Below are positions 5,274-8,200 of a stretch of 64,000 nucleotides of DNA, piece by piece. Within the stretch, counting starts at the first letter, position 1. Each line of letters begins with the position of its first letter. Source of the DNA: Thermoproteota archaeon. GTDB lineage: Archaea > Thermoproteota > Thermoprotei > Thermofilales > B9-G17. Made by a program: the position numbers and the translations under genes. The notes under the pieces were generated by a model, which worked only from the letters and a program-made list of their open reading frames with translations, searched no databases and was not told the origin of the DNA. The stretch is from the NCBI GenBank assembly GCA_029258885.1, contig JAPDJW010000001.1:64001-128000 (forward strand). The letters are read 5' to 3'.

Positions 5274-8200
5274 GCCATGCATAGGATACGCCCACGTATT
5301 CCACGCCAGCTAGATCTAACGCACGTAAGCCGCCTGGTGGATGGCTCGGCTCGGGCGCCGAGGAAGGACGCGGCAAGCGGCGATATGCCCCGGGTAGACG
5401 CATGCAGTCGTCGAACCGGGGATCTCCGAATGGGACTTCCTGTTACGGGCGAATAGCCCGTAACGCTCGGGAAAGCCCTAGCTATGCTAGGGTGAGTACC
5501 GAGTGGGAACCCCCCGAACGGAAACATCTTAGTAGGGGGAGGAGAAGAAACCAAAATGGGATCCCCTGAGTAGGGGCGACCGAAAGGGGGAGAGCCCAAA
5601 CCGAACCTGTAGGCGAAGAGTCTACAGGGATGTGGTGTTATGGACCCGACCGCTCCCTTCTCGGGGAAGCCGAAGTGGGTTGGAAAACCCCGCCGTAGAG
5701 GGTGACAGCCCCGTAGGCGTAACCCGAGGGGGATTGGGTCGGTGTTCCGGAGTACCACGGCTTGGTTTTGCCGTGGGAAGTTGGGAGTCACCGACTTCCA
5801 AGGCTAAATACGTCCCGAGACCGATAGCGAACTAGTACCGTGAGGGAAAGCTGAAAAGAACCCCGAGAGGGGGGTGAAAAGAGCCTGAAACCAGGCGGCT
5901 ACAGGTGGCACGGCCCGAAAGGGTAGATCCTCCCCGAAGGAAACCTGGGCGACCGGGAGTACGAGGGGAGGGGACCAGGGTCGTGCCTTGCGTCTGGAAA
6001 CACGAGCCGGGGAGTTCACGGCCGTGGCGAGCTTAAGGGGGTCAGCCCCGAAGGCGTAGGGAAACCGACATGCCCACAGCCGGTACCTCTACTCTTAGCC
6101 TAGAACCCTGATTCATGACGGGTCCTAGGCTAAGGGCAAGTACTGGTGAGGGGCGGGGTCCGAAGAGGGCCTGGAGTCACGGCCGTGAGACCAGAAACCG
6201 AGCGATCTAGGCCGGGGCAGGGTGAAGCCAGGCGAAAGCCTGGTGGAGGCCCGAAGGGGTTCTGACGTGCAAATCGTTCCCATGACCTCGGCCTAGGGGC
6301 AAAAGACCAATCAAGCTCGGTGATAGCTGGTTCCCCCCGAAGCTGGTCCCAGCCAGGCCCGCCCAGAGGCGACCGATGGGGTAGGGCACTGATTGGGAGG
6401 CAGGGGGCCGAAAGGCCTCACCTCCCTTTCAAACCCCGAATCCATCGGTGCCGAAGAAGGGTGGAGACGGGTTCCCGTGGATAAGCCACGGGGCCGAGAG
6501 GGGAACAACCCAGACCGAGGTTAAGGCCCCCAAGTGCCGGCTAAGTGTCAATCTTAAAGGGCGTCCTCGGCCGTAGACAGCGGGGCCGTAGGCCTAGAAG
6601 CAGCCATCGGCTAAGAAGTGCGTAACAGCTTACCCGCCGAGGCCGAGGGCCCCGAAAATTGCCGGGACTAAGCCGGCCGCCGAGACCTCGGGGCACCCTC
6701 CGCTGGAGGGTGATCCGGTAGGGGGGCGTCCGGGTGGGCTAGAAGTCGGGCCGTGAGGTCCGATGGACCCGCTCGGATTGAAAATCCCGGCGGTAGTAAC
6801 AGCAAAGAGGGGTGAAAATCCCCTCCGCCGAAAGGGCCAGGGTTCCTTGGCAATGCGTCGTCAGCCAAGGGTTAGCCGGTCCTAAGGCGGGACGTAACTC
6901 GTACCCGCCGAAAGGGAAACGGGTTAATATTCCCGTGCCGTGGGGGTACGATCGCGGTAACGCAAGCCCAACTCCTGACGCTTCGGGGTAGGGCGAGTGG
7001 GGTCGTCGCCCCATTTAACCGCTGAAGACCGGGGAGTGCCGTAATGGCGAGAACCGGTCGAAGGCGGGAATAGCCCGCCGTTTAAGGCGGGTTCGCCCGA
7101 CCCCCGGAGCCCGTGAAAAGGGAGTTGGGAAGGAGCCCCCACGACCGTACCGAGAACCGACACAGGTGCCTCTGGGTGAGAAGCCCAAGGCGTGTCGGGG
7201 TTACCCCGGGCTAGGGAACTCGGCAAATTGGCCCCGTAACTTCGGGAGAAGGGGTGCCTGTGGTCTTAGCCAATAAGGCTGGGACCGCAGGTCGCAGTGA
7301 CAAGGGGGACCCGACTGTTTAATAAAAACATAGGTCCCCGCGAGCCCGTAAGGGTGTGTACGGGGGCTGAATCCTGGCCACTGGCGGTACGTGAACCCCG
7401 GGTTCAACCGGGCGAAGCGCCGCTGAAGGCCGGGAGTAACTCTGACTCTCTTAAGGTAGCCAAATGCCTTGCCGGGTAAGTTCCGGCGCGCATGAATGGA
7501 TCAACGAGGTCCCCACTGTCCCAGCCCGGGACCCGGTGAACCCGCAACCTGGTGCACAGTCCAGGATCCCCCGGCGGGGCGAGAAGACCCCGTGGAGCTT
7601 TACTGCAGCCTGTCGTTGGGATACGGTTACGGGTGCATAGTGTAGGTGGGAGCAATGAACTAACCTCTCTGGGGGTTAGGGATGCGCCAATGAAACACCA
7701 CCCACCTGTAATCGTGTCCCTAACCCGGGAAACCGGGGACAGCGGCAGGTGGGCAGTTCGGCTGGGGCGGCACACCCCTGAAAAGATATCAGGGGTGCCC
7801 AAAGCTCGGCTCAGGCGGGTCAGAAACCCGCCGTAGAGGGCAAGGCCAAATGCCGGGCTGACTGCGCCCTTGAACGCAAGGGGCGCAGGGGGGAAACCCG
7901 GGCCTAGCGAACGCTCGTGTCCCCCTCGGTGGGGGCCGGGCATGACAGAAAAGTTACCCCGGGAATAACCGGCTCGTCGCGGGCGAGAGTTCACATCGAC
8001 CCCGCGGTTTGGTACCCAGACGTCGTCTCTTCCCATCCTGGCGGTGCAGCAGCCGCCAAGGGTGGGGCTGCTCGCCCATTAAAGGGGAACGTGAGATGGG
8101 TTTAGACCGTCGCGAGACAGGTCGGTCTCTACCTGCCGGGGGTGCTGGCCGCCTGAGGGGAAGGTCCGCCCAGTACGAGAGGAACGGCGGGCCGTGGCCT

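Follow-up and report, generated by a model that had tools for sequence, protein, structure and literature searches.

A conserved expansion segment at the ES9 site of 23S rRNA in non-Asgard archaea, with an apical K-loop predicted to bind L7Ae

A stretch of 64,000 nt from a Thermoproteota archaeon (assembly GCA_029258885.1, contig JAPDJW010000001.1, positions 64,001 to 128,000 of the forward strand; hereafter the window) contains a 23S rRNA gene whose helix 30, the site of expansion segment 9 (ES9), is drawn out into a long hairpin arm. The arm is a conserved and structurally supported ES9-site expansion segment in archaea outside Asgard, and its tip carries the signature of a K-loop, a variant of the kink-turn (K-turn), that is predicted to bind the ribosomal protein L7Ae. 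What was observed directly is where the arm lies, how it folds and covaries, how its motifs are conserved and how widely it is spread in the phylogeny. The interpretation favoured here, with moderate confidence, is that of a vertically inherited helix 30 expansion that is retained in the rRNA and whose apical K-loop is predicted to bind L7Ae.

Position and fold of the helix 30 arm

The 23S rRNA gene is present as a single copy and is the only large subunit (LSU) match in the genome (2.1 Mb in 26 contigs; label G000). The hairpin is the third of four (H28-H31) inside helix 27, corresponding to positions 729-757 of the Rfam archaeal LSU model. The original prediction had described it at 6080-6146 as lying at the ES9 position and as less GC-rich than the surrounding rRNA. 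Its letters and coordinates match the window exactly, the GC content is 53.7% compared to 63% for the remaining 23S, and the ES9 position holds, refined to helix 30 by the order of the hairpins in the helix 27 multiloop. Helix 30 is also the helix by which ES9 was measured by Penev et al. (2020, PMC7594248). In the Rfam alignment the insert lies within helix 30 and the flanking core is unchanged: 60 loop nucleotides are left unaligned to the archaeal LSU model in the window compared to 3 in the model, with the flanks placed at high posterior. The minimum free energy (MFE) of the region 6060-6165 is -52.3 kcal/mol compared to -34.2 +/- 3.7 for shuffled sequences (z = -4.85), and none of 200 shuffles folded as well. 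The elements of the locus are as follows.

5313-8455, + strand: 23S (LSU) rRNA gene, host of the arm (RF02540, 2916.5 bits, model positions 1-2987)
6072-6154, + strand: whole helix 30 (ES9 site), 83 nt, delimited by Rfam alignment, MFE fold and the lengths in relatives
6072-6075 with 6151-6154: universal 4-bp base of helix 30, followed by a 3x3 loop and then by the extended arm
6079-6086, + strand: 5' strand of the 8-bp lower helix, pairing with 6140-6147 and equivalent to the short-hairpin stem of relatives
6140-6147, + strand: 3' strand of the lower helix (MFE fold, covariation)
6087-6091, + strand: 5' side of the internal loop, C-N-C-U-R (here CUCUA), with C6087-C6089 unpaired
6137-6139, + strand: 3' side of the internal loop, Y-A-N (here CAA), with A6139 unpaired
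6092-6108, + strand: 5' strand of the extension helix, consisting of 12 bp, a 1x1 mismatch (A6104/C6124) and 4 bp (MFE fold)
6120-6136, + strand: 3' strand of the extension helix, pairing with 6092-6108 (MFE fold, covariation)
6109-6119, + strand: apical K-loop signature, U-GA-UU-CAU-GA-C, 11 nt
Positions within the K-loop signature: 3n, U6109; 2n, G6110; 1n, A6111; L1-L3, C6114-A6115-U6116; 1b, G6117; 2b, A6118; 3b, C6119
6089-6138, + strand: stretch without counterpart in family f4 of the same order (defined by alignment)
Letters of the hairpin: CCGGTAC (6080-6086), CTCTA (6087-6091), CTCTTAGCCTAG (6092-6103), loop TGATTCATGAC (6109-6119), CTAGGCTAAGGG (6125-6136), CAA (6137-6139) and GTACTGG (6140-6146), flanked by GGAAACCGACATGCCCACAG and TGAGGGGCGGGGTCC
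3677-5174: 16S rRNA gene, separated from the 23S gene by a spacer of 138 nt (5175-5312)

The 16S-23S spacer contains no tRNA, as in the crenarchaeal operon type. Two tRNA genes were noted in the window, one at 3302-3376 (+), which precedes the 16S gene by about 300 nt, and one at 12713-12786 (-).

Conservation and distribution of the arm

About 30 distinct sequences have an arm of the same architecture at this site. A covariance model built from seven copies of equal length was used to align 27 distinct copies, in which 95.7% of the cells are standard pairs and 25 of the 29 pairs have changed on both sides. The covariation score of 0.83 drops to 0.09-0.14 when the partners are slid by 1-3 columns, and the observed values were reached by none of 500 shuffles. 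While this alignment was fitted to the model, each sequence also folds into the arm architecture on its own. Both helices contribute to the signal: in the lower helix 7 of 8 pairs have changed on both sides with 98.1% of cells paired, and in the third helix, counted as 17 pairs including the two that flank the loop, 15 have changed on both sides with 93.5% of cells paired. Judged by these compensatory changes, the arm is a base-paired extension maintained by selection, as is expected of an expansion segment at ES9.

The asymmetric internal loop between the two helices is itself conserved. It consists of a 3-nt bulge (CNC) opposite one unpaired nucleotide, with the 5' motif being CUCUA in 13 of the homologs, CUCUG in 8 and CCCUA in 6, and the 3' motif being CAA in 17, UAA in 6 and other triplets in 4. 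The U-A pair of this loop (U6090-A6138 in the window) is invariant in all 27. The position beside it, where A6091 is opposite C6137 in the window, is either A.C (19/27) or G.U (8/27) and never another combination, which represents isosteric wobble covariation. In the copy from a family f48 genome (L122, G264:C3:91140-91280) the internal loop reads CACUA/GAA. The original prediction had seen the hairpin and its coordinates correctly and had overlooked both of its conserved motifs, this internal loop and the K-loop at the apex.

In length the helix 30 sequences of the measured set are bimodal, with 83 nt in the window and 79-101 nt in the carriers of the arm compared to 29-34 nt in 27 relatives. 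All 16 genomes of the same order with an assembled 23S rRNA belong to family f4 and have a hairpin of 15-21 nt at the site, and a hairpin of this size is also found in f14 and f15, two large families of the window's class. Within 23S nucleotides 1-2518, the stretch 6089-6138 is the only one of at least 8 nt that distinguishes the window from the f4 sequences, besides 9 nt at 5482-5490 that are missing from L004 and L007. A second, smaller variable segment lies in domain I of the 23S rRNA, 5475-5500 (about 26 nt), and is present in the window and in relatives of the same order and absent from f15; Rfam shows inserts at this place, and a relative from family f10 does not have 5475-5497.

Carriers within the window's class belong to families f9 (G043, G044, G045, G047) and f10 (G050). 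Further carriers are found in families f39 and f48, among metagenome-assembled genomes titled Candidatus Methanomethylicia and Candidatus Nezhaarchaeota/Nezhaarchaeales, and in 20 distinct metagenome sequences. One of these, the metagenome contig L091, comes from the same species as the window and has a near-identical arm, in which the wobble pair G6082.U6144 is replaced by G-C. In an unbiased draw of 151 Thermoproteota genomes across the phylum, helix 30 was detectable in 50, of which 4 have the long form, 1 has a plain hairpin of intermediate length and 45 have the short form. Several matches were discarded: L075 ('Bathyarchaeota') and all bacterial matches in the scan of public collections are chance matches outside rRNA, and the metagenome matches L090, L095, L097, L098, L108, L114 and L117 are not rRNA. 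The f9 copies L024, L067, L068 and L069 have GGGAAACCCGA in their 23S rRNA, with one extra C compared to GGGAAACCGA in other archaea. As this extra C causes such copies to be missed by scans with exact patterns, the spread of the arm in public collections is probably underestimated.

These results support the proposal in the original prediction of an enlarged ES9 outside Asgard, with a covarying structure common to several Thermoproteota lineages. Alignment to Thermoproteota, which it had suggested as a check, shows that the arm is unusual among relatives of the same order, which have the short form, but not unique, as the long form occurs in other lineages. Other kinds of extension are also found at this site in Thermoproteota-like rRNAs. 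L101 (Ga0315268_10039077, 2697-2799, minus strand) has an arm of 85 nt without the CNC-U-R loop or the K-loop, in which the stem ends in a plain tetraloop, and L124 (G232:C6:94585-94680, family f23) forms a perfect hairpin of about 46 nt. Based on these other types, helix 30 seems to be a recurrent growth point.

A maximum likelihood tree was calculated from 1.4 kb of flanking 23S rRNA with helix 30 masked. The long form occurs on many deep branches and the short form constitutes two clades (f4 and f15), so that two changes suffice, on a tree that was rooted arbitrarily without a Sulfolobales-type outgroup and in which the picture is biased by metagenome rows selected because their helix 30 is long. 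The arm is distributed as expected of an rRNA feature that is passed on vertically and lost at times, and not as expected of a mobile intron.

The original prediction had alternatively regarded the hairpin as a mini-intron without an open reading frame (ORF), whose excision would restore a 7-bp hairpin. In this case the splicing endonuclease would cut at a relaxed bulge-helix-bulge (BHB) and RtcB would ligate the ends. The pairing on which this proposal was based can indeed be drawn, as the window, L091 and L094 allow a helix of 4 bp (CUCU or CCCU with AGGG) with bulges of 5 and 3 nt. Hairpin introns of less than about 50 nt that keep the BHB are known from 16S genes of Thermoproteales (PMC4496867), and the nearest relatives with rRNA do not have the segment, both of which would suit an intron. 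However, the BHB defines archaeal rRNA and tRNA introns (PMC4496867), and here even the relaxed form is confined to the three sequences named, 3 of the 27 homologs, which leaves the intron without support. A strict BHB (hBHBh') was found at the homologous position in none of the 27 sequences in a script scan for strict and relaxed forms. What is conserved instead is the 3x1 loop, together with the covarying pairs on either side of it, and a motif at the apex, at a great distance from the would-be junctions. The conserved unpaired strands of the loop face each other rather than being offset by 4 bp, which is incompatible with a BHB. Introns in rRNA genes have been described from conserved regions, grouped by geography and with internal structures that are not conserved within a locus (PMC4496867). 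The sporadic distribution and core-region site that are typical of BHB introns, if not strictly defining, were not observed for the arm, which sits at the tip of a variable helix and tracks the rRNA phylogeny with two changes on the masked tree. An intron is therefore very improbable, and this half of the original prediction is not supported.

A recent insertion of a mobile or repeat element, or an assembly artefact, could be suspected from the GC content of the arm, which lies below that of the surrounding rRNA, and from a 23-nt stretch of 91% identity elsewhere in the genome. This stretch (G000:C1:41245-41267, L020 ~1501-1523) matches 6087-6109, the 5' arm of the extension. It lies inside an ORF of 432 amino acids on the opposite strand and covers one arm only, and was rejected as a repeat copy since the match most likely arose by chance. 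Within the genome the 67-nt sequence occurs just once, whereas it recurs in the independent metagenome contig L091 and about 30 diverged homologs show compensatory changes. An element or artefact of this kind is effectively refuted.

The apical K-loop signature and its putative ligand

At the apex of the arm, the pattern N-GA-(N2 or more)-N-R-U-GA-N was recognised in all 28 homologs that were parsed by script, with four mis-parsed rows corrected by eye from the alignment. After this correction, L3 is a U and L2 a purine in every copy. The apical loop is enclosed by GA and GA in 26 of the 28 copies, as expected at the sequence level for the tandem G.A and A.G pairs of a K-loop. The combination at 3n.3b, as read by the script with the four rows still mis-parsed, is G.A in 10 copies, U.G in 5, C.A, U.C and G.U in 3 each, U.U in 2, and C.C and U.A in 1 each, and is therefore non-Watson-Crick as in K-loops, with U.A as the single Watson-Crick case. 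A K-loop is a K-turn in which a loop replaces the canonical (C) helix, and no difference in L7Ae binding is expected between the two (PMC3884654). In K-turns the protein reads the bulged uridine (PMC3553981). The apical pattern is, on its letters, a K-loop signature in which the tandem G.A pairs would be stacked on the long helix, which would serve as the non-canonical (NC) helix. Natural variants agree with this assignment. L106, L102 and L026 contain a mini-hairpin between A1n and L1, the place of the C helix in a K-turn, which in L106 reads CCC-CUUGU-GGG followed by AAU-GA. With this insertion the K-loop becomes a regular K-turn. A mini-helix at exactly this place is hard to account for unless the K-turn reading is correct.

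Given these features, the favoured interpretation can be spelled out as a mechanism. The helix 30 expansion would remain part of the mature ribosome, where it would form a rod of about 30 bp at the surface of the subunit, composed of four parts: a lower helix of 8 bp equivalent to the ordinary short hairpin, an asymmetric internal loop with bulged CNC that probably sets a bend, orients the arm or provides a second contact, an extension helix of 10-22 bp that covaries freely, and an apical K-loop in which a loop with R-U at its end closes tandem sheared G.A pairs. The K-loop at 6109-6119 would recruit a further copy of the multifunctional housekeeping protein L7Ae (eL8/L8e), analogous to KT-25 in the expansion segment ES7L. 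In Pyrococcus and other archaea, variable rRNA regions contain further K-turns with a bulged U that are specific to certain lineages and are filled by L8e/L7Ae, such as KT-25 (ES7L) and KT-33 (h33), and L7Ae occupancy tracks the motif across species (PMC3553981). The enlarged ES9 of Lokiarchaeum is visible on ribosomes in situ (PMC9834061), which indicates that helix 30 tolerates long outgrowths.

We infer with considerable confidence that the arm is retained in mature rRNA; if so, binding of L7Ae to it is likely. Several points weigh against the interpretation as a whole. Retention is itself a deduction, and so are the kink and L7Ae binding, which are predicted from a signature in sequence. 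Two of the 28 copies have AA at 2n-1n (A at 2n), and G264 of family f48, although it has a GGG-UAA-CCC mini-helix at the place of the C helix, has C instead of A at 2b and is thus a non-standard variant. The masked tree is skewed by metagenome rows selected for the long form, and as only 4 of 50 in the phylum sample are long, several losses or transfers would be required. A search with PF01248 for an additional L7Ae-family paralog in the carriers revealed no association with the arm: there are two matches in carriers (G000, G043-G045, G050) and two in f4 genomes, which are not carriers, and the window's genome encodes one L7Ae (G000:C15:6637-6915) and one L30e-type protein just as the f4 genomes do. 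Without a dedicated paralog, any binding would have to use the housekeeping L7Ae, and co-variation with a protein gives no support. Three PF01248 matches are found in f14 genomes and most f15 genomes, which have no arm, compared to two in the window's order and in families f9-f13; in several f14 genomes the third match sits in an ORF of about 400 amino acids.

Alternatively, the arm could be a retained expansion segment in which the GA...UGA tip is not an L7Ae site and serves as a structural tandem-GA cap, an RNA-RNA contact, or a site for L30e or an unknown factor. The structural evidence for an expansion segment fits this possibility equally well, no extra L7Ae paralog goes with the arm, a few copies depart from the K-turn consensus, and the CNC-U-R/Y-A-N loop has no assigned partner, which makes other ligands plausible. 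On the other hand, all K-loop determinants at the sequence level are matched (G1b, A2b, G2n, A1n, L3 = U, L2 = R and a non-Watson-Crick 3b.3n), natural variants restore the C helix at the right place, and L7Ae has been documented on any such motif in archaeal rRNA (PMC3553981). A tip with another role is a less probable option, though one to be taken seriously.

In bacterial 23S rRNA, helices 25 and 45 can carry intervening sequences (IVS) at their tips. If the arm were of this type, it would be cut from the pre-rRNA without religation, resulting in a fragmented 23S rRNA. Its architecture, a long hairpin that replaces the loop of a variable helix in some lineages only, resembles that of the bacterial elements. 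No processing signal is evident, however, and the K-loop and internal loop are kept over large phylogenetic distances, which is unexpected for a discarded spacer. In addition, the enlarged ES9 at the same helix is retained on Lokiarchaeum ribosomes (PMC9834061). Excision of this kind is very unlikely. Arm GC and flank GC correlate across the homologs with r = 0.48, too weakly to serve as an argument for or against retention.

The resemblance of the tip to guide RNAs was also considered. An H/ACA guide hairpin was rejected, as the conserved loop is 3x1 (5x3 by MFE), there is no variable guide pocket, and the 3' flank UGAGGGGCGG does not contain ACA. A box C/D small RNA (sRNA) was likewise rejected, as RUGA-N and N-GA alone are conserved with no guide region and no Rfam match. 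Rfam searches with the hairpin alone returned just microRNA-type hairpin matches far below threshold. A genome-wide search for C/D guides antisense to helix 30 gave six matches of 9-12 nt beside CTGA, none with box C context, and is uninformative.

Implications and comparison with known systems

In several lineages of uncultured Thermoproteota, ES9 measures 79-112 nt, which means that an enlarged ES9 is not exclusive to Asgard. ES9 has been reported as 20-30 nt in non-Asgard archaea and 29-103 nt in Lokiarchaeota (Penev et al. 2020, PMC7594248), enlarged ES9 and ES39 have been stated to be absent from non-Asgard archaea (PMC7594248, PMC9834061), and cells have been identified by cryo-tomography with both segments serving as a marker specific to Asgard (PMC9834061). 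Among archaea, helix 30 appears to be a growth point that is either recurrent or ancient. As the arm bears a conserved motif of the protein-binding type and is not a plain rod, it suggests a testable role, the recruitment of another copy of L7Ae, and such an additional docking site, if true, would extend the picture of promiscuous ribosomal proteins in archaeal ribosomes. The arm is also useful as a signature for the rRNA of these lineages and cautions against masking such inserts as introns in alignments.

Perhaps the arm is ancestral to Methanomethylicia and Thermoproteia, possibly even to TACK and Asgard archaea, in which case it would be a homolog of the Asgard ES9 and would have been lost from cultured lineages that resemble Thermofilaceae, Thermoproteaceae and Sulfolobales. 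This scenario is speculative and on balance improbable. Were it true, the enlarged ES9 would not be an innovation of the Asgard/eukaryote lineage and would have begun as an extra docking arm for L7Ae, providing a concrete intermediate for the co-evolution of expansion segments and added ribosomal protein sites before eukaryotes.

In the searched literature, no paper was found that describes helix 30 of Thermoproteota as enlarged or as bearing a K-turn. Among described systems, the ES9 of Lokiarchaeota extends the same helix to a similar size (29-103 compared to 79-101 nt), also growing outward from an unchanged core. The hosts differ, being Thermoproteota in the present case (Methanomethylicia, Nezhaarchaeales and several families of the window's class), and the present arm forms a rod that does not branch and contains two conserved motifs, in a comparison for which the Lokiarchaeota ES9 was taken from its published description. 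The BHB introns of Thermoproteales (Jay & Inskeep 2015, PMC4496867) are likewise short rRNA hairpins without an ORF that occur in thermophilic Thermoproteota and are missing in close relatives, whereas the arm has no conserved BHB, is located at a variable tip, has a conserved inner structure and loop motifs, and has a vertical distribution.

The K-loops of archaeal H/ACA and box C'/D' sRNAs are similar to the tip of the arm in capping a stem with tandem G.A pairs and in having R-U before the 3' GA, and L7Ae binds these sRNA loops. Box C (RUGAUGA) and box D (CUGA) begin like the two halves of the K-loop, R-U-G-A and N-G-A, respectively. Unlike the sRNAs, the arm is embedded in rRNA and has no pseudouridylation pocket, ACA box, complete C box or guide. 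The closest functional analogue is KT-25 in ES7L, where the motif decides whether an extra copy of L7Ae is present on the ribosome. KT-25 (H25/ES7L) and KT-33 (h33) are, like the present motif, lineage-variable motifs of the bulged-U K-turn type in variable rRNA (Armache et al. 2013, PMC3553981). The motif described here differs from both in being located in helix 30 and in forming a terminal K-loop on an extension of about 50 nt instead of an internal K-turn, with its binding of L7Ae being a prediction.

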